Assembly: GCA_963763505.1 (NCBI GenBank)
Contig: CAVXOZ010000009.1
Location: forward strand, 463,596 to 527,595
DNA length: 64,000 nt
Direction: 5' to 3'
DNA from: an uncultured delta proteobacterium
GTDB lineage: Bacteria > Myxococcota_A > Polyangia > Polyangiales > Polyangiaceae
The notes below the pieces were generated by a model, which saw only the letters and a list, made by a program, of their open reading frames with translations, was not told where the DNA came from and made no database searches. Positions within the stretch are counted from its first letter, which is position 1, and each line of letters begins with the position of its first letter. The translations under genes and the position numbers were made by a program. Below, in pieces: positions 13,666 to 29,651 of this stretch.

Positions 13666-16600
13666 ATGTCACCGAGCCAACCGCGTCATCTCTACGGGCT
13701 TGCCGTACTTTCGGCGGCGATCCTCCTCGATTGCACGAAGGCCGACGTTCCCCCGTCGAACGGGGGCCTGGAAATCGTCCTCGAGAGCGACATGTCGATC
13801 CCGAAGGACATCGACCACGTGCGCCTGACGGTCCGCCAGCAAGGGCAGTCGCTCTTGCAAGTGGACCGGGACGTGGGTCCGAAGGCCCTCCTGATGCCGG
13901 CCTCGTTCGACGTGAAGTCGAACGGCGATGGCGCTCCGGTCGCGGTCCAGGCCGTCGCCTACAAGAACGGTCAGGCCCGCGTAGAGCGCGACGCAGTCAC
14001 GCCGATTCCGCCGGACCACGTCGGCGAACTGCGCCTTCCGCTGAACTATCTCTGCGTCGGCACCGCGCAGTCGGATGCCGACGGCGGCGTGAGCTCGACG
14101 TGCCCGGACGGGCAGACGTGCTCGCAAGGGGCGTGCGTGACGGCGGTCGTTCCGCCGTCGGCCGTGCCCGCGGTCAGCGCGGGAACCGGAGATACCGGCG
14201 CGGGTGCAGACAGCGGACCTCCGGCGACGGCGGGCGCCGACGCGGGAGCGGGTGCCGATTGCTTCGACGTGTCGACGTGCTTGATGGCGGCCGCGCCAGC
14301 CACGGTCGACGCGGCACACTGCACCGTGACGCTGCCGCCTGGCGCGCACTCGGCCAGCGTGAACGTCGCGCTGCAGTTCCCCATCGGGGGCCCCGGGGTG
14401 TGCGGGGTCGATGCGTGCTGGGTGGTGCTCACGGACTGGACGCTGAAGGGCACGCAGATCCAGCTGCCGCAGGCCGCATGCACAATGGCGGCCGCGCAAG
14501 GGGCGAGCCTGGTGATCAGCACGACTTGCGCGACGCAGACCGACTCGGTGCCTGTCTGCGGGCCGTGGTCCTCCGCGACGACGCCAATCACGGAGCCCGC
14601 GACGGGGGGGCCGATCGGGCAGGCTTGCACGACGGCCTTGAGCCAGTCGTGCGGTCTGTGTGGCACTCAGACGCGTACGTGCGTCGAAGGAAACCCGTCG
14701 GCCTGGTCGGCGTGCATGGGCGAGGGCGTGTGCGCGGCGGGCGCGACGCAGGCCTGCGGCACGGGCGGCACCCAGACCTGCGATGCCACCTGCCAATGGG
14801 GAGACTGCGGCTGTCCGAACGGCCTCATCGCGTGTGGGGCGCCCGGCACGTGCGTATCGCCGGACGACGTTCACACGTGCGGCTCGTGCAGCAACGACTG
14901 CTCGGCGCTGCCTCACGTGACCGGCTCCACGACGTGCGCGGCCGGGGCATGCGCCTTCGCGTCGTCGTGCGCCGCCGGCTACGCGGACTGCGACGGCGAC
15001 CCGACGAACGGCTGCGAGACCGACATCACGCAAGCGAGCCACTGCGGCGGCTGCAACACCAGCGCCAAACCCACGGCCTGCTCCGGAGCGACCCCGCTCT
15101 GCTCGCCCTCGGCCGCGACGTACGAGTGCGTCTCCGGTTGCTCTTCGAGCATGCCGACGCTGTGCAGCGGCACGTGCGTCAACACGACCAGCGACCCGAA
15201 AAACTGCGGGACCTGCGGCAACACCTGCAACCTGGCGCACGCGACCGCGTCGTGCGGTAACGGCAGCTGCGTCGTCGCCGCGTGCGCCGCCGGCTACGCC
15301 GATTGCGACGGCGATCCGACGAACGGTTGCGAGACCGACATCACCCAGGCGGCCCACTGCGGCGGGTGCAGCACGACGGCGAAGCCCACCCTGTGCTCCG
15401 GAGGGACCCCCGTCTGTTCGCTCTCGGGGACCACGTACCAGTGCATTTCCGGTTGCCCTTCGAGCACGCCGGCGCTGTGCAGCGGCGCGTGCGTCGACAC
15501 GACGAGCGACGCAAACAACTGCGGGGGCTGCGGAAGCGCCTGCAACCTGGCGCACGCCACCGCCGCGTGCCGTTCCAGCAGCTGCGCGGTCGCGTCGTGC
15601 AGCGCCGGCTACGCCGATTGCGACGGCAGCCCGACGAACGGCTGCGAGACGGACATCACCCAGGCGGCCAATTGCGGCGGCTGCAACACCACCGCGAAGC
15701 CGACGGCCTGCTCCGGTGGGACCCCCCTCTGCTCGCTCTCGGGAACGACGTACGAGTGCGTCTCCGGCTGCTCCTCGAGCATGCCGACGCTGTGCAGCGG
15801 CACCTGCGTCAACACGACGACCGACGCGAACAACTGCGGGGCCTGCGCCAGCGCGTGCAGCCTGGCGCACGCCACCGCCGCGTGCCGTTCCAGTAGCTGC
15901 GCCGTCGCGTCGTGCACCACCGGCTTCGCCGATTGCGACGGTAGCCCGACGAACGGCTGCGAGACGGACATCACCCAGGCAGCCAATTGCGGCGGCTGCA
16001 ACACGACCGCGAAGCCCACCGCGTGCTCCGGCGGCATGACCTGTCAGAGCGGCGCATGCGCGTGCCCCAGCACCTTCCACTCGTGCAGCGGGACGTGCAT
16101 GAGCAACACGTCGGTCGCCAGCTGCGGCTCGTCGTGCGTCGCGTGCACGGCGCCGACCGGAGGGAGCGCGACGTGCAACGGCACTTCGTGCGGGACCAGC
16201 TGTCCGAGCGGCGAGACCGTGTGCAGCGGGGCGTGCGTCAACCTGAACACCAGCACGAGCAACTGCGGATCCTGCGGCAAGGCCTGCGCGGGGACGTGCT
16301 CGGGAGGGACTTGCACACTCCCGACCGCCACGGCCATTGCCGCCGGTAGCCAGGATTCGTGCGCGCTCATGTCCGACGGGACGGTCCGATGTTGGGGCGC
16401 CAACAGCCAGGGCCAGCTCGGCAACGACACGACGACCGATTCGTCGAAGCCCGTCACGGTCTCCGGCCTGAGCGGCGCGACGGCAATCGCGGCGGGCTAC
16501 CAGATGGCGTGCGCGCTGCTCTCGGGCGGAACCGTCGAGTGCTGGGGCGGTAACGACCAAGGCCAGCTCGGCAATGGCACGATGACGGCTTCCTCGACGC

Positions 16601-17376
16601 CCGTCGCCGTCTCCGGCCTGACGGGCGTCACGGCGATCGCGACCACCGCGGAGGCCGAGCACGTCTGCGCGCTGCTCTCGGGCGGTACGGTCAAATGCTG
16701 GGGGTTGAACGCCCACGGCGAACTTGGCAACAACAGCACGAGCAGCTCCCCGACCCCGGTCACGGCCTCCGGGGTGACGGGCGCCACGGCGATCGCCGTG
16801 GGCGCGGACCATACATGCGCGCTGATCTCCGGCGGAACGGCGAAGTGCTGGGGGTTCAACACGTTCGGTCAGCTCGAAAACGGGTCGACGGCAACGACGT
16901 CGACGCCCGGGGCGGCCTCGGAGCTGAATGGTGCCACGGCCATTGTCGCCGGCGGCAACCACACGTGCGCTTTGATGTCCAACGCCACGGAAGTGTGTCG
17001 CGGAGACGATACCGACGGGGAGCTCGGCGACGGACAGATGACCAACTCGTCGGGAGGGATTGCGGTGAGCGGCCTGAGCGGCATCACGGCCTTTTCCGCA
17101 GGGAACATCCACGGCTGCGCCGTGATCGCGGGCGGCGCCGTCGACTGCTGGGGGGAAGACAACTTCGGGGAACTCGGCAACGGAAACACGGCGCCTTCCG
17201 CGACCCCCGTGGCCGTGTCGAACTTGAGCGGCGCCACCGCCGTCGCGGCGGGGGACGATCACACGTGCGCCCTGCTCCCCGCCGGTGTCATCGACTGCTG
17301 GGGGGACAATGGCAACGGGGAACTCGGCAACGGGACGACGACCCAATCGTCCGTCCCCGTGACCGTGAGCTTCTGA
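13666..17376 (+). CDS. Large secreted modular protein: N-terminal domain, 3.4 tandem Cys-rich modules and about 8 RCC1 (regulator of chromosome condensation)-type blades
   Basis: RBS gggaga precedes ATG 13666; signal peptide MSPSQPRHLYGLAVLSAAILLDC. Cys-rich modules CAAGYADCDGDPTNGCETDITQA.HCGGC... repeat every 106 aa. The C-terminal repeats CWG.N..GQLGNG....S..PV.VSGL.G.TAIA.G..H.CAL are RCC1-like. The antisense 1225-aa ORF is an artefact. Confidence 0.85.
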   Translation: MSPSQPRHLYGLAVLSAAILLDCTKADVPPSNGGLEIVLESDMSIPKDIDHVRLTVRQQGQSLLQVDRDVGPKALLMPASFDVKSNGDGAPVAVQAVAYKNGQARVERDAVTPIPPDHVGELRLPLNYLCVGTAQSDADGGVSSTCPDGQTCSQGACVTAVVPPSAVPAVSAGTGDTGAGADSGPPATAGADAGAGADCFDVSTCLMAAAPATVDAAHCTVTLPPGAHSASVNVALQFPIGGPGVCGVDACWVVLTDWTLKGTQIQLPQAACTMAAAQGASLVISTTCATQTDSVPVCGPWSSATTPITEPATGGPIGQACTTALSQSCGLCGTQTRTCVEGNPSAWSACMGEGVCAAGATQACGTGGTQTCDATCQWGDCGCPNGLIACGAPGTCVSPDDVHTCGSCSNDCSALPHVTGSTTCAAGACAFASSCAAGYADCDGDPTNGCETDITQASHCGGCNTSAKPTACSGATPLCSPSAATYECVSGCSSSMPTLCSGTCVNTTSDPKNCGTCGNTCNLAHATASCGNGSCVVAACAAGYADCDGDPTNGCETDITQAAHCGGCSTTAKPTLCSGGTPVCSLSGTTYQCISGCPSSTPALCSGACVDTTSDANNCGGCGSACNLAHATAACRSSSCAVASCSAGYADCDGSPTNGCETDITQAANCGGCNTTAKPTACSGGTPLCSLSGTTYECVSGCSSSMPTLCSGTCVNTTTDANNCGACASACSLAHATAACRSSSCAVASCTTGFADCDGSPTNGCETDITQAANCGGCNTTAKPTACSGGMTCQSGACACPSTFHSCSGTCMSNTSVASCGSSCVACTAPTGGSATCNGTSCGTSCPSGETVCSGACVNLNTSTSNCGSCGKACAGTCSGGTCTLPTATAIAAGSQDSCALMSDGTVRCWGANSQGQLGNDTTTDSSKPVTVSGLSGATAIAAGYQMACALLSGGTVECWGGNDQGQLGNGTMTASSTPVAVSGLTGVTAIATTAEAEHVCALLSGGTVKCWGLNAHGELGNNSTSSSPTPVTASGVTGATAIAVGADHTCALISGGTAKCWGFNTFGQLENGSTATTSTPGAASELNGATAIVAGGNHTCALMSNATEVCRGDDTDGELGDGQMTNSSGGIAVSGLSGITAFSAGNIHGCAVIAGGAVDCWGEDNFGELGNGNTAPSATPVAVSNLSGATAVAAGDDHTCALLPAGVIDCWGDNGNGELGNGTTTQSSVPVTVSF
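14950..16020. repeat. 318-bp tandem repeat, about 3.4 near-identical copies, inside the 13666..17376 CDS
   Basis: Repeat starts at about 14977, 15295, 15607 and 15919, each with gccggctacgc[gc]ga[ct]tgcgacgg.... The encoded 106-aa modules are more than 85% identical. RCC1 units of 156 bp follow from about 16320 to 17370. Confidence 0.85.
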
Positions 17377-17476: not shown

Positions 17477-18871
17477 TTAGGCGGCCGCCACGGAACGGAG
17501 CTCGCCCGCCAGCTCCGTCATCGACTGGTACCGCTCCTCTCGCGGCCGACGCAGGCACTTGAGGATGACGGCTTCGACTCCCGGCGGGACTTCCTCCTTG
17601 AGGCGCGCCCGGAGCGGCAGCGGAGGCTTGGTCATGACGTTGGCGAAGAGAGCCAGGTGACCATTGCCCCCAAACGGGGTGTCGCCCGCGAGGATTTCGT
17701 AGAGCAGAACCCCCATCGACCAGATGTCGGCGCGCAGGTCCACGTCGGTCGCGGCCATCATCTGCTCAGGGGACATGTACGCCGGCGAGCCGACGACCTT
17801 TCCCATGCTCGTGATCCTCGATCCGCCCGCCTCGTCGCCCACGGCGATCCCGAAATCGATCACCTTCACGAGGGGGCCCGCGCCCTGGCCAGCGTCGGCG
17901 AGAAACACGTTGGATGGCTTGACGTCGCGGTGGACCACGCCGAGGGCGTGGGCCTCGGCGATGCCCTCGCACGCGTCGGCGCACCAGGCGAGCGCCTGCC
18001 GGTAGGGTACGCGACCCTGTGTCTCGACGAGGCGGCCTAGGTCGGTGCCTTCGAGGTACTCGAGAGCGAGGTACGGCAGGGCGCCCTGCGTGGCGTCGAG
18101 ATTGCCGACATCGAGGAGCCGGCCGACGTGGGGACTGTGCAGCCGCATGAGGACGCGCGCCTCGCGCACGAACCGCTCGAGAACCTCCTCGTGATTCCGC
18201 CACTCGGGCAAGAGCACCTTGAGGGCGGCGCGGATCCCCCCGCGGTCCCGCGCCTCGAACACGGCACCCGACGCGCCGCGGCCCAGCTCACGGATCACCT
18301 GCCACCGGCCGGCGATCGTCGCTCCCGGCCCGACCGGGAAAGGCGAGGCGGCAGGACCGGAACCACCACCATCGAGTTCGCGACGCAGGCGCAGCTCGCG
18401 CGCGACCTGCCGGGCGAGGCGCTCGAGCGCCGCGAGCTGCCGCGTGGTGAGCGTGCGCGGACGCGTGTCGGCGACAGAGAGCGCCCCGATTGCCGAGCCC
18501 TCCTCGACGAGCAAGGGGACGCCCGCGTAGAAGCGGATGTGCGGATTCCCCATGACGAGCGGGTTGTCCGAGAACCGCGCATCGAGGTGCGTGTCTTCGA
18601 TGACGAGCGGGTGCCGATGGTTGATGCAGTGACCGCAGAACGACAGGTCGCGCGCCGTTCCCTCCTGCTCGACGCCCACGCGTGCCTTGAACCATTGGTA
18701 GTCGGAGTCGACGAGCGTGATGAGGGCAATCTCGGTTCCGCAGAGGTCCGCCGCGAGACGCGCTACTTCGTCGAAGGCTTCCTCGGCCGGCGTGTAGATG
18801 ATGTTGCACGCCCTGAGGAGCGCAAGGCGTCTCTCCTCGTCGTCCGGAATCGGCGGCTCGATCATGGCCAT
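17477..18871 (-). CDS. GAF domain-containing Ser/Thr protein kinase
   Basis: N-terminal GAF (ALITLVDSDYQWFKARVG...FCGHCI). The kinase carries GRGASGAVFEA (Gly loop), ALK (VAIK-like), HRDVKPSNVFL, DFG and SPAYMSPE. Start is probably MAMIEPP at 18871 rather than 18910. Confidence 0.85.
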   Translation of the reverse strand: MAMIEPPIPDDEERRLALLRACNIIYTPAEEAFDEVARLAADLCGTEIALITLVDSDYQWFKARVGVEQEGTARDLSFCGHCINHRHPLVIEDTHLDARFSDNPLVMGNPHIRFYAGVPLLVEEGSAIGALSVADTRPRTLTTRQLAALERLARQVARELRLRRELDGGGSGPAASPFPVGPGATIAGRWQVIRELGRGASGAVFEARDRGGIRAALKVLLPEWRNHEEVLERFVREARVLMRLHSPHVGRLLDVGNLDATQGALPYLALEYLEGTDLGRLVETQGRVPYRQALAWCADACEGIAEAHALGVVHRDVKPSNVFLADAGQGAGPLVKVIDFGIAVGDEAGGSRITSMGKVVGSPAYMSPEQMMAATDVDLRADIWSMGVLLYEILAGDTPFGGNGHLALFANVMTKPPLPLRARLKEEVPPGVEAVILKCLRRPREERYQSMTELAGELRSVAAA

Positions 18872-18968
18872 CCTCGGGTACCACTTCCCGCGATGGCGCG
18901 CGAGAGCCATCCCGACACACTAAAGCCACCACTTGACAGTTTGGAAGGGGCGCCCAATACTCAAGCCG

Positions 18969-19331
18969 ATGCTGAACAATGCCGCGGTCGATCGCGTTTT
19001 CCACGCCCTGGCAGAGCCCACTCGTCGAGCCTTGGTAGAGCGTCTGAGCGCCGGACCCATGTCGGTCAGCGCCTTGGCGCAGCCGTTCGACCTCACCTTG
19101 GCGGCGATTGTGCAGCACCTTCAGGTCCTCGAAGAGAGCGGCGTCGTGCGAACCGAGAAAGTCGGTCGCGTGAGAACGTGCCGCATCGATTCGCGCGGCC
19201 TGAGCCTCGCCGAGCGCTGGCTCTCCGAACGCCGCGCCCTTTGGGAGCGCCGGCTCGATCGCCTGGGCGAACTGCTCGCCGAAGACGACGGGCAGCAGAA
19301 ACCACCGAGCAAGACAAAGAGGAGACCCTGA
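18969..19331 (+). CDS. ArsR/SmtB family transcriptional regulator
   Basis: VFHALAEPTRRALVERLSAGPMSVSALAQPFDLTLAAIVQHLQVLEESGVV is a winged HTH of ArsR type. Divergent from the kinase gene. Confidence 0.75.
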   Translation: MLNNAAVDRVFHALAEPTRRALVERLSAGPMSVSALAQPFDLTLAAIVQHLQVLEESGVVRTEKVGRVRTCRIDSRGLSLAERWLSERRALWERRLDRLGELLAEDDGQQKPPSKTKRRP

Positions 19332-19404
19332 CCGAAACCGCGGTCCCGAGGGCGCGCCGCCGAGGGGGACCGAGATTCGGAACGACACGACCTACCAGGA
19401 CATC

Positions 19405-19629
19405 GTGCCCGAGCGACGCATCGTGTTCGCATACACGATGACCCTCGGTGACAAGCGCATCTCTGCCTCGCTGGCGACGATAGAATTGCGCACTTCAGAC
19501 AAGGGCACGCACTTGGTCTTCACCGAGCAGGGCGCCTTCTTCGAGGGCGCGGATCGCCCCCAGACGCGCGAAGGTGGCTGGCGCGACCTGCTGTCGAAAC
19601 TGGATCAGGAACTACGCCGATCGGCGTGA
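19405..19629 (+). pseudogene. C-terminal fragment of an SRPBCC/AHSA1 (activator of Hsp90 ATPase homologue)-family gene; the N-terminus is missing
   Basis: IVFAYTMTLGDKRISASLATIELRTSDKGTHLVFTEQGAFFEG...GGWRDLLSKLDQEL resembles the C-half of AHSA1-like proteins that usually follow ArsR genes. The frame is open back to 19204 with no ATG. The expected roughly 70 N-terminal residues are absent. Confidence 0.4.
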
Positions 19630-19977
19630 TCACTGCCATTTGTTGCGTCACGGCGTGATGACGAGTCGGCCGTCCGGGCCGGTGCAGAGGCGGAAACGGG
19701 CAGGTGCAACATGAAGTACCTGTACATGGGGCGAGATCCGAGCTCCGGGGGCAACTACAACACGCTTCCCTGGCGCCTGGGACTCCTGACGAAGACCAAC
19801 TGAGTCGGCAGCGGCTCGTTTCGTGACGTCTGGGTGATGTCTTCGGGTACGGGCGGCGACAAGTTGAAGAGGACTTCACTTGCGACTGGTAGATGCGGTC
19901 GCGGGCGGTACCCTGCGGCGCGCGTGCCCGTCGCCACACATCGGCTCCCCGGGCGCCGGTTCGCGGAGCGATGAGAA

Positions 19978-21147
19978 ATGCCCAAATTGCGACCCGTCAA
20001 CCGTTACTCGTCGTGGTTCGTGCCGGCGTTTGCGATCTTCGCGGTGGCCTGCTCGGCGCACGACCAAGGCGGCGTCGGTTGCGACGTCGGGGGGCTCAAT
20101 GAATGTGGCGTCTGCTGGCCGGCACTGGGCGACCTGGGCGCATCGTGCGTCGCATCGGACGGCTGTTCTGGCACGAAGGTTTGCTCGGCGGATGGCAAGA
20201 CCTCGACCTGCGCGACGTCGAAAGTCGCGAACGCATGCGGCGTGTGCGGGGGAGCGCCGGTCTCAAGCGTCAACACCACGTGCACCACGACGGCGGGCGT
20301 GGCCGGCTTCTCCGTTTGCGACGACATGGGCGACGGAACGGTATGCGCCAGGACCGTCATCACGATGACGTTCGACGACACGTTCTCCGACACACTACAG
20401 GCGCCACCCCTGCTCGAAGCGCATGGATTTCGTGGCACGTTCTTCGTCAACAGCCCGCGCTTCGATCGCGGCACGCACTACATGACCCTTGGTCAGGTGC
20501 TCGACTTGCAGAGTCGGGGGCACGAGATCGGCGGCCATACGCTCGACCACCCTCACCTTCCGACGCTCCTTCCGAATGCGCAGCGGATCGAGATCTGCAA
20601 CGACCGGGCGAGCCTCCTCGCGCAAGGCCTCGACGTGCGGCACTTCGCGTACCCCTTCGGCGAGGCCAATGACGACACCGAGGCCGCGGCGCAGTTCTGC
20701 AATTACGATTCGGCGCGCGGAGTCGGCGACCTGACCGACGCAGACGGAGGGCGCATCGGCGCCGAGAACTACATCCCTCCCGATCCGTTCAAGATCCGCG
20801 CCGACTCGTCGATCATCGACACGAACACCCTCGCGGACCTGCAGGCGCGGGTGCTCACGGGAGAGCAGACCGGAGGCTGGGTCATCATCAACATGCACCA
20901 CATCTGCGCCACGTGCGGTCAGAATGAGGTGACCGTCGAGATCTTCACGGCGTTTCTCGACTGGCTCGAGGAGCACATCCGAGGAACGACCACGTACGTC
21001 CGGAAGGTCCGGCAAATGCTCCCCGGAAGTACGAAGCCGCCCGTGCTCGTGAGCGGCGCCGTGATCCCCGGCGACGCCAGCGATACGACCACGGAGAGCT
21101 TCTCGCTGCACGGCCCGTTCGAAGTCGATACGGATTCGGAGGAGTGA
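19978..21147 (+). CDS. Lipoprotein polysaccharide deacetylase (carbohydrate esterase family 4, NodB homology) with a Cys-rich N-terminal module
   Basis: Signal/lipobox FAIFAVACSA. NodB motifs TFDDTFSDT and HEIGGHTLDHPHL are present. The stop overlaps the start of the next gene (GTGA). Confidence 0.75.
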   Translation: MPKLRPVNRYSSWFVPAFAIFAVACSAHDQGGVGCDVGGLNECGVCWPALGDLGASCVASDGCSGTKVCSADGKTSTCATSKVANACGVCGGAPVSSVNTTCTTTAGVAGFSVCDDMGDGTVCARTVITMTFDDTFSDTLQAPPLLEAHGFRGTFFVNSPRFDRGTHYMTLGQVLDLQSRGHEIGGHTLDHPHLPTLLPNAQRIEICNDRASLLAQGLDVRHFAYPFGEANDDTEAAAQFCNYDSARGVGDLTDADGGRIGAENYIPPDPFKIRADSSIIDTNTLADLQARVLTGEQTGGWVIINMHHICATCGQNEVTVEIFTAFLDWLEEHIRGTTTYVRKVRQMLPGSTKPPVLVSGAVIPGDASDTTTESFSLHGPFEVDTDSEE

Positions 21148-23120
21148 GCGCCGTGTTCCCCACGAACCCTCACGCGCCGCCCGCCCATGGATCGCTGCTG
21201 CACGCGATCGTGCGCGCCGGGTGTCTTTGTGCGGTCGTCTTGGTCGTTTCGCTGTCGGCGTGTGGCCACTTCCCGGTACGCGAGACACCGCAGGTCCCGT
21301 CGGGCAAGGAATCCCTCTACGCATCGCTCAGCAGCGGCACCATCAAGATTGCCGACGAGCTGCTCGCGAACGACTGGGACATCGGCCCGCGCTCGCCCGT
21401 GGCGCACCTGCCCACCCCTCTCTCGTGGACCGAGGATCCGTTCCAGGACCACTACTGGCGGTTCATCTTCTACAGCCTTCGGCCGCTCAGCAATTTGATC
21501 TTTGCGTATTACACGACCCAGAGGACCGAATATCGCGACAAATTGATCCAAATTCTCGAGAGCTATACGGACATCGATTCGGTTCGCGCGCCCGATGCCG
21601 ACACGTTCGACTATAGGCACGCGGCCGCGTTTCGCGCGCTCATGCTCGTCAACTGCTACGGCAAGCTCGTTCGATCGGGCGACATGCCCGCCGACCTCGA
21701 GCCGAAGCTTCGCGTTTCGATCGCGAAGATAGCTGACTTTCTGCTGGCACCCTACAACTTCGAAGCATCCGACAACCACGCTTTCAACGAGGCGGCCGGA
21801 CTGCTCGCCGTCGGGGCCAACTTCCCCGACCTTCCGAACGCACCGGTGTACCTGCAGTCCGCGATAGACCGGCTCGCGTCCGAGATGCAGACGACGGTTG
21901 GTCCTGACGGGGTGGAGATCGAGAATTCGCCGTTTTATCATTTCTACGTACTGTCGGCCGTCATGCAAGACTACGAATGGGCCAGTACGTACCACGAGGC
22001 GCTGCCCGCCGAGTTCGGCGCTCGAGTGAAGGCGATGCTCGAGTACGCGACGCTCATTCCTTTGCCGGACGGGACCTTGCCGCTCCTCGGCTCGACCGTG
22101 ACGTTCGATCTTCGGCAGCTCGACCCGAGAGTCTACACGGAAGACGACATCGACAGCCTCCCGGATGGTCTCACGAGCGATCAGCACTTCGAGTACATTC
22201 GCACCGCGGGCAAGAGCGGCACGGAGCCTACCGAGCGCAACGTCTCGTTCGCGAGCTCCGGACAAGGCATTCTGCGTTCGGCATTCGGGACGCCGGACGT
22301 GTTCGACGCCCAGACACACGTGACGTTCTCCACGAGCCCGTGGCGCAACAACCATACGCACTACGACACTCTCGGAATCAACCTCTACTCCTCGGGTAAC
22401 GTTCTTCTGTCCGATTCCGGCCTCGGTACGTACGTCGCCGGCGCCGAGCACGATTACTTCTGGTCGACGCGCGCGCACAACACCGTCGTCGTGGACGGAC
22501 AGGATCAGGGATCCGATCCTGCCGCGATCGTGACGACCGGGCTCGTTGCGACCGGCGCCGCACCGTACACCTGGGCTTATCAGTCGGGCGCGCACGGCCT
22601 TTACCCTGGGGTCACCCACAAGCGATCGGTCGTTCTTCTCCAGAAGGACCTGGTCCTCGTGGTCGACGCTCTCACGAGCGTTGCGACCCACGACTACGTG
22701 CAGACGTGGCATCTCGGTGCCGGCTTGCGAGCGGATGTCGAGGGCCTGGACGTCGTCGGTCGAACGGCGAGCGGCGAACCGCTCATCCTGGTACATCAGG
22801 CCCTCACGAACGGCCTCGCACTGATGACCAGCTACGGGCAGGACAGCCCGATGCAGGGGTACCTCTCGCTCACGTACGAGAACAAAGTGCCCAACTGGGT
22901 CCTGGAATACAAGGCGACGGCCCAGACCTCCCGTGCCTTCGTGACGCTCCTCGCCTCCGGGCCCTATGCCGCCTCGACCCCGACCGTCACCGGCCTGGCC
23001 GACGGGACCAGCGCAGATGTCACGGTCTGCGCGGGGGACGCCAAGTACGATGTGTCGATCTCGCAGCAGGCGGCCGCCGGTGAAGCGGTCAGCGTCGTGC
23101 CCTCGGCAAGCTGTCCATGA
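21144..23120 (+). CDS. Heparinase II/III-like polysaccharide lyase (alginate-lyase-like N-domain + Hepar_II_III C-domain), lipoprotein
   Basis: GTG start overlaps the CE4 stop. Signal CAVVLVVSLSACG. DHAFNEAAGLLAVGANFPD...IENSPFYHFYVLSAVMQDY and NNHTHYDTLGINLYSSG are typical of the heparinase II/III family. The antisense 625-aa ORF is an artefact. Confidence 0.6.
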   Translation: MSAVFPTNPHAPPAHGSLLHAIVRAGCLCAVVLVVSLSACGHFPVRETPQVPSGKESLYASLSSGTIKIADELLANDWDIGPRSPVAHLPTPLSWTEDPFQDHYWRFIFYSLRPLSNLIFAYYTTQRTEYRDKLIQILESYTDIDSVRAPDADTFDYRHAAAFRALMLVNCYGKLVRSGDMPADLEPKLRVSIAKIADFLLAPYNFEASDNHAFNEAAGLLAVGANFPDLPNAPVYLQSAIDRLASEMQTTVGPDGVEIENSPFYHFYVLSAVMQDYEWASTYHEALPAEFGARVKAMLEYATLIPLPDGTLPLLGSTVTFDLRQLDPRVYTEDDIDSLPDGLTSDQHFEYIRTAGKSGTEPTERNVSFASSGQGILRSAFGTPDVFDAQTHVTFSTSPWRNNHTHYDTLGINLYSSGNVLLSDSGLGTYVAGAEHDYFWSTRAHNTVVVDGQDQGSDPAAIVTTGLVATGAAPYTWAYQSGAHGLYPGVTHKRSVVLLQKDLVLVVDALTSVATHDYVQTWHLGAGLRADVEGLDVVGRTASGEPLILVHQALTNGLALMTSYGQDSPMQGYLSLTYENKVPNWVLEYKATAQTSRAFVTLLASGPYAASTPTVTGLADGTSADVTVCAGDAKYDVSISQQAAAGEAVSVVPSASCP

Positions 23121-23132
23121 CGCGAACCCCGG

Positions 23133-24428
23133 TCAATCCATCGGGCAGACGTCGGCGCTTCCGATGCGCGTGGGGGGTCTCGGGCCGCATTGCACGACAA
23201 CGAGCGGGTGCGGGTGGGGGTGCGCCCGGTACCCAGGCGGCGGCCCGAGCGAGAACTCCGGCGCAACGCCCCTCAGCCCGCGACGCGCATCGACCATTTG
23301 TCCGGGTGGTTCGAGCTGGTTTCCCCAGATCGAGACGGGGCCGCACCGCTGCGTCGTCTCCTCGGTGAGCTCGACCCCGAGGCGATAACCCCGAAGCGTG
23401 TTGTTCCACACCACGCCCGCGCCGCCCCGAATGCGGATGGCCCAGCCGTCGTAAAACGGCAGGCCGTGGTCTGGCTGCTCGATGAGATTGTCGTGCACGT
23501 CGATCCACTCGCCTCCGACCGCCGATCCGAACTCCGCTCCGTGCGCGTCGATGGCGTGTGCCACGACTCCGCTGGTGACGTAGTTGTTGCGGAAAACGTA
23601 GCGACCGCCCTTGTTCGACGCGATGGCATGACGGCAGAGGGAGAACCGTGAGTCCTCGACGACGGTCGCTTCCGGGATCCCACCGGGCGACTGCTGCCCC
23701 AGGGCGACGCCCGTGAGGGCGTTCGTGCCGTAGACGGCCACGCCGTAGCCGTCGGTCCCAATGGCCGGCTTGTACTCCGCGTAGAAGGAGCAATGATCGA
23801 CGACGCCCCGGCTCGTCCCGTTGGTGCGCACCCCGGCGAATCCCATATGAGCGAAGTAGGAATGGTCGACGCGAAAGTCCTGCGCGTCGTCGAGCAGAAC
23901 GCCGACGTCCTTTCCCCTGGAACCTTCGTCGGCGACGCCCTCGAAGCGCAATCCGGAGATCTCGAAACGGCGCGCTCCAATGACACGCACCAGCGGGCGA
24001 TCGCTTGCGCTGGCCGGAGCCGACACGAGGGTGGCGGCCGAGCCGTCTGCCGTCGATCCCAAGTCCATCGAGCCCGCGCCCGCGCCAAGAAGAAGGACAT
24101 CGTCGCTGCGGACGATGATGGGAGCGTCGACCTCGTAGCGGCCGGCCGGCATGACCACGATCGATGCGGGCCCGGCTCGATCGACGGCCTCCTGGATGGC
24201 GCGCGCGGTAGGCTCACGCACCGTCACGACCGCGCGCCAGCGCCGCGGCCCGACGAGGTAGACGGAGCTCGTGGAGGCAGCCGGCCCCGGGATGCCTTCC
24301 GCCGGTGACATCGGCGGGGGAGCCGCGAACGCACTGCGTTCGGTGCCGGTCGCCGGGCGAGTGCAACTCGACATCAGCACGGCTGCGCCCAGCATGCGCG
24401 GCGCGGGGAACGAGCAGGGCACCTTCAC
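23133..24428 (-). CDS. Secreted right-handed parallel beta-helix repeat protein (pectate-lyase fold; candidate polysaccharide lyase or C5-epimerase)
   Basis: Signal MLGAAVLMSSC. Repetitive xGxxVxxNxF/VxxS beta-helix rungs (VDHCSFYAEY, FRNNYVTSGVVAHAIDAHG, DVHDNLIEQ). Its start overlaps the stop of the upstream OMF-like gene (same operon). Confidence 0.55.
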   Translation of the reverse strand: MKVPCSFPAPRMLGAAVLMSSCTRPATGTERSAFAAPPPMSPAEGIPGPAASTSSVYLVGPRRWRAVVTVREPTARAIQEAVDRAGPASIVVMPAGRYEVDAPIIVRSDDVLLLGAGAGSMDLGSTADGSAATLVSAPASASDRPLVRVIGARRFEISGLRFEGVADEGSRGKDVGVLLDDAQDFRVDHSYFAHMGFAGVRTNGTSRGVVDHCSFYAEYKPAIGTDGYGVAVYGTNALTGVALGQQSPGGIPEATVVEDSRFSLCRHAIASNKGGRYVFRNNYVTSGVVAHAIDAHGAEFGSAVGGEWIDVHDNLIEQPDHGLPFYDGWAIRIRGGAGVVWNNTLRGYRLGVELTEETTQRCGPVSIWGNQLEPPGQMVDARRGLRGVAPEFSLGPPPGYRAHPHPHPLVVVQCGPRPPTRIGSADVCPMD

Positions 24429-25675
24429 GGGGACCCTATCGCCGCCGTCAACGCGCGCACATGCGCGGTCAGATAGGCCTCTTCCGAGCGCATCCGGACG
24501 ACATCGAACCAGACGTAGTCGGCATAGTCCGCGGCCCGGGGAGCGTTCAGGTCCAGCATCGTCTTGGTGCGCTGTTCCAGGTCCGAGCGCAGAGCCACGA
24601 CTTGCCGCAAGCGCTCCGCATCGGCGTCGAGCAGAGATCTGAGCTTTTCGATCGCAACGCGCGCCTGGTCGGCCTCACGCTCGGTCTGGGCCGCCGACCA
24701 TTGCGCGCGCGCGGCCGCGGCACGAGCCTCTGGCGGGCCTTGCGCGAGCCAACCGGTGCTCATGGTGATCCCCACCACGCCGAAGAACGGAAACGGCTGG
24801 TCCGTCCCCAGAAAGCGATCGTACCCGCCCTGGATCGTCAACTCGAAAGCGGACAGGCGGCGCAGCTGCGATTCGACCCGTTCGATCTGCGCCTCGGCTC
24901 CGGCTCGAGTGGCTACGAGGCGATCGACATCGGTCAGGGGCAGGGTCGGCAGATGAAGGCCGGCGAGGTGCTCGCGAGCGTCGGCTTGGAGCTCCCGCAG
25001 AGCGTCCATGCGTATCGTCGCCGCGTCGAGATCCTGCATCGTGGCCTGTCCGATCGCCACGTGTTGCTGGATCTTGTCGACGATCGCTTGCGCTTGGGGC
25101 ATTGCTTGCTGGAGTACGTTCAGTTTCGCGGACCACCCCGACGCCGCGAACGAGTCGGCGTCGAGAGTCGCCAGGGCGCGAATCTGCAGGGCCACCCGGT
25201 ACCGCTGGCACTCTGCGCTGGCGTAGCTCGAGGCGAGCGCACCGCGGTAGAAATTGGTGGGACTGAAGCCAGCGCCCGCGAGCACGCGAGGGTAGGCGGT
25301 CGGCGTTGCGATGTCGGCCGCCGATACACCACCCAGCGTATGGACCGGAATGACGCCTGCCTCGGCGAAGAGCCATGGCGACTTGTCGATCGCGCTCTCC
25401 GACGCCGCGGCCGCGCCGATGAACTCACAATACGCTCGCGACTCGGCTTCCAGCTGCTTCGGCGTCGAGGCTCCCGCCTCCGGTGTGTCGATCGGTCCGA
25501 TCGCCGCGGACGTCCCGAACGAAGACGATCCGGCCCGTGGCGTGGGCTGCGCTGCAGCCGTCGTCGCGACCGCAACCAGGGTCGCGCCGCTGGCCGCAGC
25601 CACCGCGCGCGCGACGACGGCGCGCACGACCCGAAGGCGGCTCCCTCGCAAGCATCCCGGCAGTGACGTCTGCAT
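24425..25675 (-). CDS. Outer-membrane factor-like protein (TolC/OEP family candidate) of a tripartite exporter
   Basis: 416 aa with a signal peptide. Ala/Leu/Gln-rich heptad segments in two halves. The position directly downstream of the HlyD-like gene fits an OMF. No strict motif verified. Confidence 0.4.
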   Translation of the reverse strand: MQTSLPGCLRGSRLRVVRAVVARAVAAASGATLVAVATTAAAQPTPRAGSSSFGTSAAIGPIDTPEAGASTPKQLEAESRAYCEFIGAAAASESAIDKSPWLFAEAGVIPVHTLGGVSAADIATPTAYPRVLAGAGFSPTNFYRGALASSYASAECQRYRVALQIRALATLDADSFAASGWSAKLNVLQQAMPQAQAIVDKIQQHVAIGQATMQDLDAATIRMDALRELQADAREHLAGLHLPTLPLTDVDRLVATRAGAEAQIERVESQLRRLSAFELTIQGGYDRFLGTDQPFPFFGVVGITMSTGWLAQGPPEARAAAARAQWSAAQTEREADQARVAIEKLRSLLDADAERLRQVVALRSDLEQRTKTMLDLNAPRAADYADYVWFDVVRMRSEEAYLTAHVRALTAAIGSP

Positions 25676-25685
25676 TCGGCTCGTC

Positions 25686-26816
25686 CTACAAGAGCAGGGG
25701 TTTTCGTTTCACATGCAGAACGGGTTGCTGCGCCCAGCTCACTTCGCCGAGCTGGAGTTGAACGAGCTCTCCACGCAGCTCGCGCTCGAAGACCGGGTGC
25801 TTTTGCAGAATTTCGCCGTCGAGGAGGGCGACCACCACACCGATTCGAGAGCATCCAAGAACGCCGAGCAGGCGGCACCCATACACCGGGGTTCCAGGGT
25901 GGACTCCGTCGAGGTTCTCGTACGGCGCAAACGCGACCGTCAGGTTCTCCGTGGCTGCCTTGAGAAGCGGCTGGTTTTCGATGGCCGTCAGCATCCGGTC
26001 GTACTGCGCGACCACGGCTTGGTTCGATCGAATGCTCTCCGCGAGCGCGCCTTTCAAGTCGGTGGCGCGCGCCTCGGACACGACGGATTGCAGGTAGTCC
26101 TCCTGCAAGCGAACCAGTTCGGGGCTACCGGCCGTCGCCCCGCCCTTGCCCCCGAGCATCGCCTCGACTCCGGACAGGCTCACGAGCTGGTGCCGTAGCG
26201 CGGCCACGTGCGTCTGAAGCTCGACGCCCTTTTCCTCGAAGCCGTAGTTGTTGCTGGCCATCTCGGCGAACAGATGCTTCGTCGTGAGCATGGTGTCGTT
26301 GTCGATCATGTGCGCGTCGAACAGCTGCTGCACACGTTCGAGCGACAGCTGGGCGAAGGCTTCGTTGGCGGGGCGAATCTGGTCGCTCGCTCGGTCGCGC
26401 TCGCCGTTCAGCGAGTCGAGCGCGTGCAGCTGGTCGCGTACGGCGCCCATCTCGGAGCCAAGGGCCTTCTTCAGCGCAATCTGAAAGGCCCTCTCGCCGT
26501 CGATGGTGCGCTCGGCATCTGCGAGGCGGGCCTTGAGCTCCGCGGCCTGTCCAGCCACGACTTCGCGCCGCGACGATTCCTCCGCGTGACGAGAGCTCAG
26601 GTCCTGCACACGCGGGTCCGCCGCCGTGATGATCATCGGCGCGACCCAGGCTCGGTGTACGAAGTAAAATGCGCACTGCCCGAGGTAGAGCCCCAGGCCG
26701 AGGAGAATCGCGAACAGAATCGCCAAGCCCAGGAATTTGTACGCCGACACGATGACCCGGTTCAGCGGGATCGCGGAGAACGGCGACGGACGGAAGGGCG
26801 TGGTGCGAGCCGTCAT
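25686..26816 (-). CDS. HlyD-family membrane-fusion (periplasmic adaptor) protein
   Basis: Start MTARTTPFRP at 26816 overlaps the GT2 stop (ATGA). One N-terminal TM helix (VIVSAYKFLGLAILFAILLGLGLYL), a long coiled coil and a C-terminal beta domain. The upstream 138 codons of the ORF-track entry are non-coding overlap. Confidence 0.55.
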   Translation of the reverse strand: MTARTTPFRPSPFSAIPLNRVIVSAYKFLGLAILFAILLGLGLYLGQCAFYFVHRAWVAPMIITAADPRVQDLSSRHAEESSRREVVAGQAAELKARLADAERTIDGERAFQIALKKALGSEMGAVRDQLHALDSLNGERDRASDQIRPANEAFAQLSLERVQQLFDAHMIDNDTMLTTKHLFAEMASNNYGFEEKGVELQTHVAALRHQLVSLSGVEAMLGGKGGATAGSPELVRLQEDYLQSVVSEARATDLKGALAESIRSNQAVVAQYDRMLTAIENQPLLKAATENLTVAFAPYENLDGVHPGTPVYGCRLLGVLGCSRIGVVVALLDGEILQKHPVFERELRGELVQLQLGEVSWAQQPVLHVKRKPLLL

Positions 26817-28045
26817 GGGGAGGTTGATCCTGCGAGAACACCGGCGGACGCGGCGTCGGGCCCCGACGGGGGCGTGTGCCCCCGAGTTTCCCAGCTCGAC
26901 GAGTCGAGCGTGAAGAGCGCGAGCGGCGTGTAGAGCACGTAGGTCACCGGCATGATGATGCCGAGCGAGAGAAACCATAGAGGGTGGACGCGCTGCGATT
27001 CGGGCTGATCCCGGACATCGAAGTGATACAGGGTGCCGAGCAGCGCCAGCGTGGCGAAGTGAAAAATGGCGAGTTCGAAGAACGTCCCGCGGACGAGATT
27101 GCTGAACACGACGACTGGATACGACAGGAGCATCGCGAACATCGAGACGTAGTGCAACGTGATGAGTGGATGCCGCTTCCAGATGTGGGTGGCACCGACC
27201 AGGAAGTCGACGATGTTCGACCGACGCCACCGGAGCTGCTGGGAAAAGTACTTGGCGATCGTGTCGGGGGCCTTCGTCCAGCAGATCGCGGCGAGCGTGC
27301 TGCCGGTCCTGTAGCCGGCCTTCACGATCTGATTGGTCAAAAAGCGGTCCTCGCCGTACTTGATGGGCACCCCGAACATCTCGCGTTTCTCGAGAATCGG
27401 CTCGAGCTCGACGAGCACGGAGCGCCTATACGCGGTGAGGCAGCCCGATAGACACATGACCGTGCCGAACGCGCGCTCGATGTTCTTGAGATACTCGTAC
27501 CCGAAGTGGTACTTGATCGCCTGCATCCGGGTGAGCCAGTTCTGGTTGGCGTTCGACACGTTGACGCGACCGCCCACGGCGGCGATCGCGGGCTCCACGA
27601 AGCGTGCGACGAGCTGGCGAATGGCGTCGGAGTTCACGACGGTGTCCGAGTCGACCGAAACGATCAGCTCGGACGTCGCGAGCCTCACCGCGTGGTTGAT
27701 CCCGCGGCGCTTCCCCATGTTGTACGGGTTGCGAAGAACGGTCACCTGCTCCGGCCACCGTTTGGCCGCTCCGAGCGCCCACGTGTAGCTGTCGTCCTTC
27801 GAGCAGTCGTCGACGACGGTGACCTTCAGCTTGTCGAGGGGATATTCTTGCGTGAGCAAGCTCTCGATGGTGTCGACGATCGAGCGGCCCTCGTTGTACA
27901 TCGGGATGACGACCGTCACGGTGGGCTCGTAGCCGGCCACCGTCCTGTCCCAGCGCGATCCGCTGGCTCGCCGGAGGAACATCCCGAGGAAGTACCGATT
28001 GATGAAGACCAGAAGAACGATCAGCGCAATCGGAAAGAGCAGCAT
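26813..28045 (-). CDS. Processive family-2 glycosyltransferase, NodC/hyaluronan-synthase/chitin-synthase-like (QxxRW)
   Basis: Start MLLFPIALIVLLVFINRYF at 28045. Motifs VVIPMYNE, DDCSKDDS, VDSDT, GCLTAYRR and QQLRWRRS with flanking TM helices. This is the hallmark of processive beta-glycosyl polymerases. Confidence 0.8.
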   Translation of the reverse strand: MLLFPIALIVLLVFINRYFLGMFLRRASGSRWDRTVAGYEPTVTVVIPMYNEGRSIVDTIESLLTQEYPLDKLKVTVVDDCSKDDSYTWALGAAKRWPEQVTVLRNPYNMGKRRGINHAVRLATSELIVSVDSDTVVNSDAIRQLVARFVEPAIAAVGGRVNVSNANQNWLTRMQAIKYHFGYEYLKNIERAFGTVMCLSGCLTAYRRSVLVELEPILEKREMFGVPIKYGEDRFLTNQIVKAGYRTGSTLAAICWTKAPDTIAKYFSQQLRWRRSNIVDFLVGATHIWKRHPLITLHYVSMFAMLLSYPVVVFSNLVRGTFFELAIFHFATLALLGTLYHFDVRDQPESQRVHPLWFLSLGIIMPVTYVLYTPLALFTLDSSSWETRGHTPPSGPDAASAGVLAGSTSP

Positions 28046-28367: not shown

Positions 28368-29651
28368 ATGAGCAGCGAACGAATCGGCGTGTTGGGTCTG
28401 GGCTACGTAGGGCTTCCCGTCGCGCTTGCGTTCGCGCGCAAGTTCGAGGGGACGATCGGCTACGACGTGAATCCCGATCGCATCGAGGAGCTGCGCCGCG
28501 GTCAGGACAGAAATCAGGAAGAACCGAGCGCAAAGCTGCTCTCCAGCCGCCTGGGCCTCACCAGCGACCTGGCGGAGCTCCGGGGCTGCACCTTCTTCAT
28601 CGTCGCCGTTCCGACGCCCGTGGATGGGAACAACGTGCCCGATCTGACGCCCGTCGAGCGCGCCAGCGAAGCCGTGGGTCGGGTGCTCTCCCGCGGCGGC
28701 GTCGTGGTGTACGAATCCACCGTCTATCCCGGCGTCACGGAGGACGTCTGCGGTCCGATCCTGGAGCGCGTCAGTGGCCTCAAGCGAGGCGTGGAATTCA
28801 CGGTGGGGTACTCGCCGGAGCGGATCAATCCGGGGGACCCCGATCACAGCTTCGAGAAGATCACGAAAATCGTGAGCGCGGAGGACCCCGAGACGCTCGA
28901 GCGCGTCGCGGCGACGTATGGAGCCGTCGTGGACGCGGGGCTACACCGCGCACCGAGCATCCGGGTCGCCGAGGCGGCCAAGGTCATCGAAAACACGCAG
29001 CGCGATCTGAACATCGCGCTGATGAACGAGCTCGCGCTCGTCTTCGATCGAATGAACATCCGAACCGCGGACGTCCTCGCGGCGGCAGAAACGAAGTGGA
29101 ACTTCCTCCGATTCCGCCCCGGTCTGGTCGGAGGCCATTGCATCGGCGTCGATCCCTACTACCTGACCACCAAGGCGCAGCAGCTCGGGTACCAGCCGGA
29201 AGTCATCCTGGCCGGGCGACGGATCAACAACAACACGGGGCCGTTCATCGCCCAGCGGCTCATCAAGCTCTTCGTTCACGCGAACCTGCCGATCAAGGGC
29301 GCCCGCGTGGGGGTGCTCGGCTTGACGTTCAAAGAGAACTGCAGCGACATCCGCAACAGTCGGGTGCCGGACATCGTTCGGGAGCTCCGGCAGTTCGGGA
29401 TCGAGGCCATGGTGCACGACCCCCTGGTCAAGCCGGCAGACGCGATCCGCGAGCACGGTGTGAAGCCCGTCGCCTTCGAGGAGCTGGAAGGGCTCGACGG
29501 GCTCGTACTGGCGGTCAGTCACAAGTGGTATCTCGGACTTGGGCAGCCGCGCCTTCTGTCGATGCTTCGCGACGGCGGCACGCTCGTCGACGTGAAGAGC
29601 GCGCTGGACCCGGCGAAGCTCGAACGGGGCATCCAGTACTGGAGTCTTTGA
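28368..29651 (+). CDS. Nucleotide-sugar 6-dehydrogenase (UDP-glucose/GDP-mannose dehydrogenase family; TviB/WbpA/WecC-like UDP-N-acetylhexosamine dehydrogenase)
   Basis: N-terminal GVLGLGYVGLPVALAFA Rossmann motif and catalytic GGHCIGVDP (GGxCxxxD). The C-terminal UDP-binding domain is present. Confidence 0.85.
   Translation: MSSERIGVLGLGYVGLPVALAFARKFEGTIGYDVNPDRIEELRRGQDRNQEEPSAKLLSSRLGLTSDLAELRGCTFFIVAVPTPVDGNNVPDLTPVERASEAVGRVLSRGGVVVYESTVYPGVTEDVCGPILERVSGLKRGVEFTVGYSPERINPGDPDHSFEKITKIVSAEDPETLERVAATYGAVVDAGLHRAPSIRVAEAAKVIENTQRDLNIALMNELALVFDRMNIRTADVLAAAETKWNFLRFRPGLVGGHCIGVDPYYLTTKAQQLGYQPEVILAGRRINNNTGPFIAQRLIKLFVHANLPIKGARVGVLGLTFKENCSDIRNSRVPDIVRELRQFGIEAMVHDPLVKPADAIREHGVKPVAFEELEGLDGLVLAVSHKWYLGLGQPRLLSMLRDGGTLVDVKSALDPAKLERGIQYWSL

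Follow-up and report, generated by a model that had tools for sequence, protein, structure and literature searches.

A CE4 deacetylase and a heparinase-like lyase facing an exopolysaccharide synthase operon in an uncultured member of the Polyangiaceae: a probable polymer-tailoring module

The gene pair and the synthase operon that it faces

Two adjacent genes were analyzed in a 64,000-nucleotide stretch of DNA (referred to here as the window) from an uncultured delta proteobacterium of the Polyangiaceae (contig CAVXOZ010000009.1, positions 463,596 to 527,595). The first encodes a CE4-type polysaccharide deacetylase and the second a heparinase II/III-like (PL12-like) lyase, termed Hep. The pair converges on an operon headed by a gene for a processive glycosyltransferase of family GT2, beyond which lies a divergent sugar-nucleotide dehydrogenase gene (Table 1). 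An earlier note, prepared from the sequence, had located the pair at 19978-23120. Both open reading frames were found there, with Pfam matches above the cutoffs and complete sets of catalytic residues. Third-position GC values of 0.84 for the CE4 gene and 0.81 for the Hep gene are high, as is typical of real genes at the GC content of the window (~68%), indicating that both are real genes.

The CE4 protein matched Polysacc_deac_1 (PF01522) over residues 126 to 244 with a score of 65.6 bits (cutoff, 23.1). When the protein was aligned with five homologues of myxococcal or actinomycete origin, D133, D134, H187, H191, and H307 proved invariant, indicating that the metal triad, the catalytic base, and the catalytic acid are intact. 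None of the named CE4 equivalogs of NCBIfam (HfsH, NodB, PgdA, and PdaA/B) was reached, the best score being 36.6 bits for HfsH against a cutoff of 400. A protein identical to the window CE4 (P0121) is present in a public collection.

Hep matched both heparinase domains of Pfam (Hepar_II_III_N, 77.2 bits; Hepar_II_III_C, 91.6 bits) and has the PL12-type fold, combining an (alpha/alpha) toroid with an antiparallel beta-sandwich. Heparinase III of Pedobacter heparinus (PDB 4mmh) was matched with an E value of 5e-18, and N208, Y262, and H401 (numbered according to the form of 655 amino acids [aa] listed in Table 1) aligned with Asn240, Tyr294, and His424 of that enzyme, which are listed for PL12 as the neutralizer (Asn240) and the catalytic pair (Tyr294/His424) (PMC12088678). 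All three residues were invariant in 30 Hep homologues. In a structural comparison, every strong relative of Hep acts on uronic-acid polymers, with PL40, PL35, PL8, and PL33 among the lower-ranked matches. Scores with both HepC equivalog models were far under the cutoffs (NF045573, 95.6 bits against 700; NF045572, 49.1 bits against 600), indicating that Hep is a distant relative of HepC and not its orthologue. Searches of phage and plasmid collections with Hep detected distant paralogues only (21% to 32% identity) and no phage depolymerase orthologue.

The assignment of lipoprotein signals to both proteins by the earlier note was borne out. The CE4 signal conforms fully to PROSITE lipoprotein pattern PS51257, with K3 and R5 present and an h-region free of charged residues. 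Two orthologues (P0122 and P0123) have the lipobox AVAC, with SAHDQ after the Cys, and a more distant relative with 51% identity (P0126) has LLSC, with RSDE after the Cys. The lipobox of Hep (...AVVLVVSLSA-C37) is kept in orthologues P0002 and P0003 as TSAC and VVSC. It breaks two positional rules of the strict PROSITE pattern, as the Cys lies past position 35 and residues 1 to 7 contain no K/R; the lipobox itself is good and conserved, and Hep is predicted to be a lipoprotein. The orthologues keeping both lipoboxes exhibited 70% to 79% identity. Hep contains a Cys pair (C626/C654), and the consensus of the C-terminal region likewise has a conserved pair of Cys residues, in line with an extracytoplasmic location.

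Translational coupling of the two genes through a GTGA overlap had also been proposed. The overlap sequence exists (GTG 21144/TGA 21145-47) and the genes are tightly linked, but the likelier start of Hep is GTG 21153, leaving a gap of 5 nt after the CE4 stop rather than an overlap. This start was adopted because of the spacing of a GGAGGAG ribosome-binding site and because an identical database protein has been called at 655 aa; initiation at GTG 21144 would yield a form of 658 aa (21144-23120, plus strand). A further candidate, GTG 21210, would yield a signal peptide of textbook length but was considered less likely, as no ribosome-binding site precedes it.

Table 1. Features of the gene pair, the convergent operon, and the divergent dehydrogenase gene
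Feature	Positions	Strand	Basis or remark
CE4 (NodB-fold) polysaccharide deacetylase, predicted lipoprotein, 389 aa	19978..21147	+	PF01522 match
CE4 signal peptide with lipobox A-V-A-C25	19978..20052	+	N terminus MPKLRPVNRYSSWFVPAFAIFAVA-C25
CE4 Cys-rich spacer, residues 35-123, 12 Cys, two NxCGxC units	20080..20346	+	Sequence; between lipobox Cys and catalytic domain
CE4 catalytic domain: TFDD at 131, HTLDH at 187, AYPFG at 224, MH306H307	20353..21012	+	Pfam and alignments
GGAGGAG ribosome-binding site of the Hep gene, inside the last CE4 codons	21138..21144	+	Spacing of 8-10 nt suits GTG 21153, not 21144
Heparinase II/III-like (PL12-like) lyase (Hep), predicted lipoprotein, 655 aa	21153..23120	+	Alternative in-frame start GTG 21144
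Right-handed beta-helix protein, 431 aa, last gene of synthase operon	23133..24428	-	Pfam
Divergent TolC-like outer-membrane factor, 416 aa, signal peptide	24425..25675	-	AlphaFold (AF2) model and Foldseek
Membrane-anchored coiled-coil protein, adaptor-like (membrane-fusion-protein-like), 376 aa	25686..26816	-	Architecture only
Processive GT2 synthase, NodC/hyaluronan synthase/chitin synthase type, ~410 aa	26813..28045	-	Pfam GT2 and Chitin_synth_2
TviB/WbpA-like UDP-N-acetylglucosamine (UDP-GlcNAc) 6-dehydrogenase, divergent from GT2	28368..29651	+	NF011729 and Pfam

The minus-strand operon begins with the GT2 gene and ends 12 nt past the Hep stop, in agreement with the convergent arrangement reported in the earlier note. 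That note had taken the facing orientation as a sign of a functional link; convergence alone is not evidence of one. Within the operon, the GT2 stop overlaps the adaptor-like gene (ATGA), a 10-nt gap separates the adaptor-like and TolC-like genes, and the latter overlaps the beta-helix gene (GTGA). A scan of 19000-29000 for sigma-70 promoters and intrinsic terminators gave counts not above those of shuffled sequence and detected nothing at the 12-nt convergent junction.

The GT2 protein has the motifs (DD187, DSD240, GED339, and QQLRW377) and the multiple transmembrane segments of a processive synthase. Its best PDB matches were hyaluronan synthases (HAS; 8smm, 5.8e-24); it scored 191.6 bits with the NodC model, below the cutoff, and 121.9 bits with the PgaC model (cutoff, 422). 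The open reading frame extends 108 codons upstream to an ATG at 28369 that abuts the dehydrogenase start. M109 at 28045 is the likely start, favored by the gene call in a sister contig (L083; ENA ERZ25039468 contig_16663) and by the position of the first membrane helix; with this start, the GT2 and dehydrogenase genes would have a 322-bp divergent intergenic region in common. The sister contig derives from the same or a near-identical organism, and its dehydrogenase and beta-helix genes are split into fragments, probably due to frameshift errors of long-read assembly rather than to real pseudogenes.

The 376-aa protein begins with a transmembrane segment, continues as a long coiled coil, and ends in a beta domain in which two Cys residues are invariant. 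It had no Pfam match, and comparison of its profile with PDB sequences gave coiled-coil noise only; the designation as a membrane fusion protein is suggested by the architecture, and this protein may represent a new periplasmic adaptor family. Its gene accompanied the TolC-like gene in all Myxococcota loci and was duplicated in two of them (L012 and L027). The 416-aa product of the next gene is secreted and helical, with no Pfam match and only 8 homologues in word searches. An AlphaFold model of moderate confidence (pLDDT, 67) matched only TolC-family channels in Foldseek (39 matches; E ≤ 1e-3; probability, 1.0), and the protein appears, on the basis of this model, to be a very divergent TolC-like duct within an exopolysaccharide synthase operon. 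This outer-membrane export component differs in class from the tetratricopeptide repeat (TPR)-plus-porin arrangement of known systems. The beta-helix protein (Beta_helix, 27.7 bits; Pect-lyase_RHGA_epim, 21.6 bits) carries a lipobox-like LMSS-C22; its gene was found only in the closest relatives, and no significant match was obtained with PDB sequences. It could be an epimerase (of the AlgG-like C5 kind) or have a lyase or hydrolase fold.

The dehydrogenase contains the N, central, and C domains of UDPG_MGDP_dh and scored 443 bits with the TviB model NF011729 (cutoff, 592). The next specific family was an archaeal UDP-ManNAc dehydrogenase model (203 bits), UDP-glucose dehydrogenase models gave at most 203 bits, and the generic nucleotide-sugar dehydrogenase subfamily TIGR03026 gave 349 bits. 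The dehydrogenase position is also filled in the contig encoding P0003, and a dehydrogenase gene adjoins the GT2-like gene in L006.

The Cys-rich spacer of the CE4 protein had been singled out in the earlier note as unusual for NodB enzymes. The module is present, but it was kept only in close relatives, was expanded in P0126, was replaced by an acidic linker in the myxococcal fusion proteins described below, and was absent in actinomycete homologues. The NxCGxC motif also occurs elsewhere in the window, at 15514 and 15829 (both in an RCC1-repeat protein) and at 51914. The restriction to close relatives and the presence of the motif in the RCC1-repeat neighbor indicate, at the level of sequence, that the module is a lineage-typical spacer of secreted proteins and is not characteristic of this family of CE4 enzymes. 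The RCC1-repeat protein (1236 aa; 13666-17376, plus strand) shares NxCGxC Cys-rich repeats with the CE4 N terminus; a full-length antisense open reading frame opposite its gene (13669-17346) was rejected as a high-GC artefact.

Upstream of the CE4 gene lie genes for an ArsR-type regulator and a GAF-Ser/Thr kinase and a truncated SRPBCC fragment, none of which was conserved in the relatives examined. The ArsR-type helix-turn-helix gene (18933-19331, plus strand) is followed by the fragment of an SRPBCC/AHSA1 protein (74 aa; 19405-19629, plus strand), which is apparently truncated, a full version of 143 aa being present in relative L082; ~350 bp of noncoding DNA separate the fragment from the CE4 start. 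In 2-kb bins over the cluster, the GC content was 0.638 (20-22 kb), 0.661 (22-24 kb), 0.682 (24-26 kb), 0.641 (26-28 kb), and 0.652 (28-30 kb). Four of these five bins (all but 24-26 kb) lie below the 0.65-0.73 of the other 2-kb bins, and the lowered GC across 20001-30000 may reflect horizontal acquisition of the cluster.

Linkage of the genes across lineages

Two metagenomic relatives, with Hep proteins 79% and 75% identical to that of the window, retained a block of six genes (CE4, Hep, beta-helix, TolC-like, adaptor-like, and HAS/NodC-like GT2) in the same arrangement. The flanks of the block differed, containing AAA ATPase and HrpA genes in one relative and alcohol dehydrogenase and UDP-sugar dehydrogenase genes in the other. 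Retention of the arrangement while the flanks change indicates that the block is a conserved unit. Scans of the block with Pfam and family models detected no sugar-uptake or catabolic genes.

A homologue search with Hep detected 161 relatives; 11 of the 120 best were CE4-Hep fusions, 4 of which also contained DUF2334. Scanning one genome per species with Hep returned 80 loci, which were searched with locally built profiles, a sample being checked by Pfam. In other Myxococcota, in Actinomycetota, Chloroflexia, and Patescibacteria, and in a DPANN archaeon, orthologues were encoded in one operon with a GT2 of the HAS/NodC-like kind, often along with a UDP-N-acetylhexosamine dehydrogenase. In a metagenome-assembled genome (MAG) of Myxococcota (L005), genes for GT2, the adaptor-like protein, the TolC-like protein, and a CE4::Hep fusion of 904 aa lie on one strand. 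The gene order was dehydrogenase, Hep, GT2, two small genes, and CE4 in Couchioplanes caeruleus (CP092183.1, 1.16-1.18 Mb); dehydrogenase, GT2, and CE4::Hep in Conexibacteraceae (L017 and L025 among the loci); GT2 and then Hep::CE4 in Saccharibacteria (with a dehydrogenase gene before GT2 in L028), Moraniibacteriota, and unclassified bacteria; and dehydrogenase, GT2, Hep, and CE4 in an Iainarchaeum MAG (DPANN). Fusions were thus seen in both orders, CE4-Hep and Hep-CE4, indicative of independent fusion events. The cultured species Archangium gephyra (strain SDU49; locus at ~5.52-5.55 Mb of NZ_CP102578.1) has a GT2 59% identical to that of the window, together with adaptor-like, TolC-like, and Hep genes.

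In order to count neighbors, a flank of at least 8 kb was required, and loci with orthologues (at least 30% identity; n = 27) were compared with loci of distant paralogues (n = 43) by Fisher tests. A NodC/HAS-like GT2 gene was found nearby in 17/27 orthologue loci and 6/43 paralogue loci (p = 4.8e-5), the former count including L006 and L027, whose GT2-like proteins are very divergent (no Pfam match; 23% identity). A CE4 gene was nearby in 15 of the 27 and 7 of the 43, respectively (p = 0.0012). The dehydrogenases in orthologue loci were of the UDP-N-acetylhexosamine (UDP-HexNAc) type, and UDP-glucose dehydrogenases occurred only beside distant paralogues. Adaptor-like and TolC-like genes were confined to Myxococcota loci, as expected of envelope-spanning parts of diderms.

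Two further observations concern particular groups of loci. L006 (5338-7425 and 14129-16129) and L027 (4325-6196 and 13770-15851) encode proteins of 620-700 aa that have no Pfam match at 1e-5 and are paired with adaptor-like and TolC-like genes. In the one pair compared, the protein at 4325-6196 of L027 exhibited a GT-A-like core, a QRRRW motif, and 23% identity to the window GT2; these divergent proteins may represent a second synthase type. Ultra-small, host-dependent Patescibacteria (L018, L021, L023, and L028) and the Iainarchaeum MAG (L064) appear to have a compact operon of GT2 and Hep/CE4, with a dehydrogenase gene in some; a polymer made by it may lie at the cell surface and play a part in attachment.

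Proposed role of the pair and competing explanations

We regard it as reasonably probable that the CE4 protein and Hep form a module that tailors, outside the cytoplasm, the polymer of a synthase-dependent exopolysaccharide system encoded by the convergent operon and the divergent dehydrogenase gene. A modifying enzyme and a cleaving enzyme are encoded together, as in other systems of this type, being adjacent here and in an operon or fused beside an orthologous GT2 elsewhere. A self-made polymer cleavable by a lyase is plausible because uronic-acid polymers are the substrates of all strong structural relatives of Hep and a TviB-like dehydrogenase gene is divergent from that of the GT2. The substrate is likely to be a chitin- or hyaluronan-like polymer containing N-acetylglucosaminuronic acid (GlcNAcA).

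In the proposed pathway, the dehydrogenase would oxidize UDP-GlcNAc to UDP-GlcNAcA, and the GT2 would polymerize and translocate a beta-linked HexNAc/HexNAc-uronic acid chain. Passage of the chain across the periplasm and the outer membrane would then fall to the membrane-anchored coiled-coil protein and its TolC-like partner. In the periplasm, the lipid-anchored CE4 protein would strip part of the N-acetyl, rather than O-acetyl, groups from the nascent chain, and lipid-anchored Hep would cleave hexosamine-(1->4)-uronate linkages through a beta-elimination that depends on Tyr and His. Such cleavage would remove chains gone astray in the periplasm and determine chain length or release, a role that in other systems belongs to AlgL, BcsZ, and the hydrolase activities of PelA and PgaB.

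Several observations weigh against this proposal. A dehydrogenase gene was nearby in 6/27 orthologue loci and 9/43 paralogue loci, indicating no enrichment (p = 1.0), and it was missing both in L082, the locus of the closest relative, and in several loci that do have a linked GT2. Identity between the window CE4 and the CE4 domains of the myxococcal fusion proteins is no more than 22% to 23%. Motif 3 of the window CE4 reads F-A-Y-P-F-G and lacks the canonical Arg of RxPY, which positions the catalytic Asp; the stretch of PDB 6dq3 aligned to this motif reads AYPSG, and the invariant R247 and R274 might substitute for the Arg. The pair and the operon form two convergent transcription units, so that their co-regulation is putative. 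Pfam scans of the GT2, the adaptor-like protein, and their neighbors detected no cyclic di-GMP (c-di-GMP) receptor domain (PilZ, GIL, MshEN, or I-site), and an Rfam scan of 18500-30500 detected no riboswitch, c-di-GMP included, at E ≤ 1; a novel c-di-GMP site in the synthase system is possible. Finally, 10/27 orthologue loci had no GT2 gene in the fetched flanks, and some of the members of the Hep family have a degradative look, as in Thermoleophilia, where large secreted LamG_3-Big_7-Hep(-CE4) proteins occur without a synthase, and in Pyxidicoccus, where Hep adjoins a PL6 chondroitinase-B-like lyase. In other Myxococcota loci, a GH16 or MbnP-like gene replaces CE4 beside Hep, the GH16 gene preceding Hep in L006, L015, and L027. 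The GT2-less loci and these replacements indicate that the family also includes degradative-looking members and that the CE4 partner is interchangeable; hence, the Hep family may not be exclusively biosynthetic.

The GT2-less loci, the Thermoleophilia and Pyxidicoccus cases, and the GH16 neighbors are also the observations that favor foraging or predatory degradation. Acidic aminosugar polymers from outside the cell, such as prey capsules, polymers resembling glycosaminoglycans, or the walls of fungi or algae, would then be the targets of the two lipoproteins, either secreted or exposed at the surface, and the proximity of the synthase would be coincidental or a matter of immunity or self-avoidance. 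The catabolic nature of the characterized PL12 and PL17 relatives points in the same direction. In the lineage of the window, however, the pair and the synthase operon stay together as one block amid changing flanks, and the block is free of sugar-uptake and catabolic genes. Among relatives, five phylum-level groups have CE4::Hep immediately behind GT2 within one operon, and the enrichment of GT2 near orthologues is statistically clear. Comparative genomics therefore supports the view of the earlier note that the pair remodels or releases a polymer of the organism itself, and we consider foraging unlikely.

A second explanation retains the biosynthetic setting but assigns to Hep the role of a polymer-level uronate C5-epimerase (or of an epimerase and lyase combined), which would convert GlcNAcA to L-ido epimers after polymerization, as dermatan-sulfate epimerase does with its own substrate. 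Dermatan-sulfate epimerase (DS-epimerase 1) has the same fold and the same Tyr/His chemistry, and an epimerase would fit as a biosynthetic partner fused to a modifying CE4. It has also been argued that minor changes in the active site toggle this fold between lyase and epimerase activity (PMC8006597). The Asn/Tyr/His set of Hep, on the other hand, is exactly that of heparinase III, and the beta-helix protein of the operon could already serve as an epimerase, as AlgG does for alginate. A lyase or hydrolase is, in addition, a standard part of synthase-dependent systems. Epimerization is in our judgment quite unlikely.

Action of the two enzymes on another envelope glycan (such as peptidoglycan or a polysaccharide of the spore or cell surface that originates elsewhere) is very improbable, as the CE4 scores far under the family cutoffs despite weak best matches that include the HfsH, PgdA, and PdaA/B models and PDB 6dq3, peptidoglycan contains no uronic acid for a PL12-type enzyme although its de-N-acetylation and that of wall polysaccharides are common among CE4 enzymes, and the recurrent linkage and fusion beside one type of GT2 point to the product of that GT2 even though myxobacteria make several other exopolysaccharides.

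Relation to known polysaccharide systems

A tailoring role for the pair finds its closest parallels in the alginate system and in systems that combine a deacetylase with a chain cutter. In the poly-N-acetylglucosamine (PNAG; PgaABCD/IcaADBC) and Pel (PelA) systems, a GT2 or other synthase makes a HexNAc polymer, and a CE4-type domain physically coupled to a chain-cutting domain removes part of its N-acetyl groups outside the cytoplasm; PgaB is anchored as a lipoprotein, as is predicted for the window proteins. The comparison with PgaB and PNAG drawn in the earlier note holds to this extent but fails for the partner, which in PgaB and PelA is a hydrolase domain (GH153 and GH166, respectively) and in the window has a lyase fold, implying a uronic acid. 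No GH domain was detected in the pair, which is thus not a PgaB-type bifunctional enzyme (CE4 plus GH153), and the window system lacks a PgaA-like or PelB-like TPR porin.

The alginate system of Pseudomonas (AlgD, Alg8, Alg44, AlgK/E, AlgG, AlgL, and AlgX/I/J/F), the parts of which are well established, resembles the window system in having a sugar-nucleotide 6-dehydrogenase, a processive GT2, a membrane-anchored partner that spans the periplasm, an outer-membrane exit, a beta-helix protein, a periplasmic lyase, and a polymer-modifying enzyme. The two differ in the modification (CE4 deacetylation rather than O-acetylation), in the dehydrogenase (UDP-GlcNAc type rather than GDP-mannose type), in the exit (TolC-like rather than the AlgE porin plus AlgK), and in that no PilZ domain was found in the window system. 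The GT2 is nearest to HAS among solved structures and lies beside a sugar-nucleotide 6-dehydrogenase gene, as in hyaluronan synthase operons (hasABC; chlorovirus HAS), but the window dehydrogenase is TviB-like rather than a UDP-glucose dehydrogenase, and there are dedicated deacetylase, lyase, adaptor-like, and TolC-like genes. Hep is likewise set apart from heparinase III (PL12; P. heparinus 4MMH and Bacteroides thetaiotaomicron 5JMF/4FNV), with 17% to 18% identity in structural alignments, a biosynthetic context rather than a catabolic utilization locus, a predicted lipid anchor, and fusion to CE4 in other lineages.

In fungi and chloroviruses, a UDP-GlcNAc 6-dehydrogenase (UNGD) gene is clustered with genes for a GT2 resembling chitin/hyaluronan synthases and for a polysaccharide deacetylase (CHS8/CDA1), and these genes have been proposed to act in concert, with no product structure given (PMC4059230, PMC5122149, PMC7053769). 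A trio of the same description is found in the bacterial loci. The fungal and chlorovirus clusters are eukaryotic or viral and have no reported heparinase-like partner; the bacterial module adds a lyase. In a full-text search of the literature, no paper was found that describes a bacterial cluster in which GT2, CE4, and heparinase-like genes occur together. The imp, wps, and gsf clusters of Actinoplanes missouriensis were rejected as relatives, being unrelated Wzx/Wzy or GtrA systems.

More tentatively, the loci described here could belong to a widespread class of synthase-dependent polymers, namely, acidic, partly de-N-acetylated, GlcNAcA-containing glycans of the chitin/hyaluronan-like type, made by a HAS/NodC-like GT2 with an often fused CE4-PL12 pair, related to the UNGD-CHS-deacetylase clusters of fungi and chloroviruses, and exported in Myxococcota through a TolC-like duct and a novel adaptor. 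We consider this broader possibility less secure than the tailoring role of the pair in the window.

Synthase-dependent exopolysaccharides such as cellulose, alginate, PNAG, and Pel are central to biofilms, and few paradigms exist for them. The present locus would add a probable new polymer chemistry, that of an N-acetyl-hexosaminuronic acid that is partly deacetylated and, hence, potentially zwitterionic. A second addition would be a new kind of tailoring module, which pairs CE4 with a PL12-like lyase and is a natural bifunctional enzyme in many lineages; a third would be a new exit route for diderms, consisting of a TolC-like duct and an unclassified adaptor. Ultra-small Patescibacteria and a DPANN archaeon carry the module, and surface glycans in such organisms probably mediate host attachment. 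The module may help to explain the long-noted UNGD-CHS-deacetylase clusters of fungi and chloroviruses, and its enzymes could serve as tools to make or cut glycosaminoglycan-like materials.

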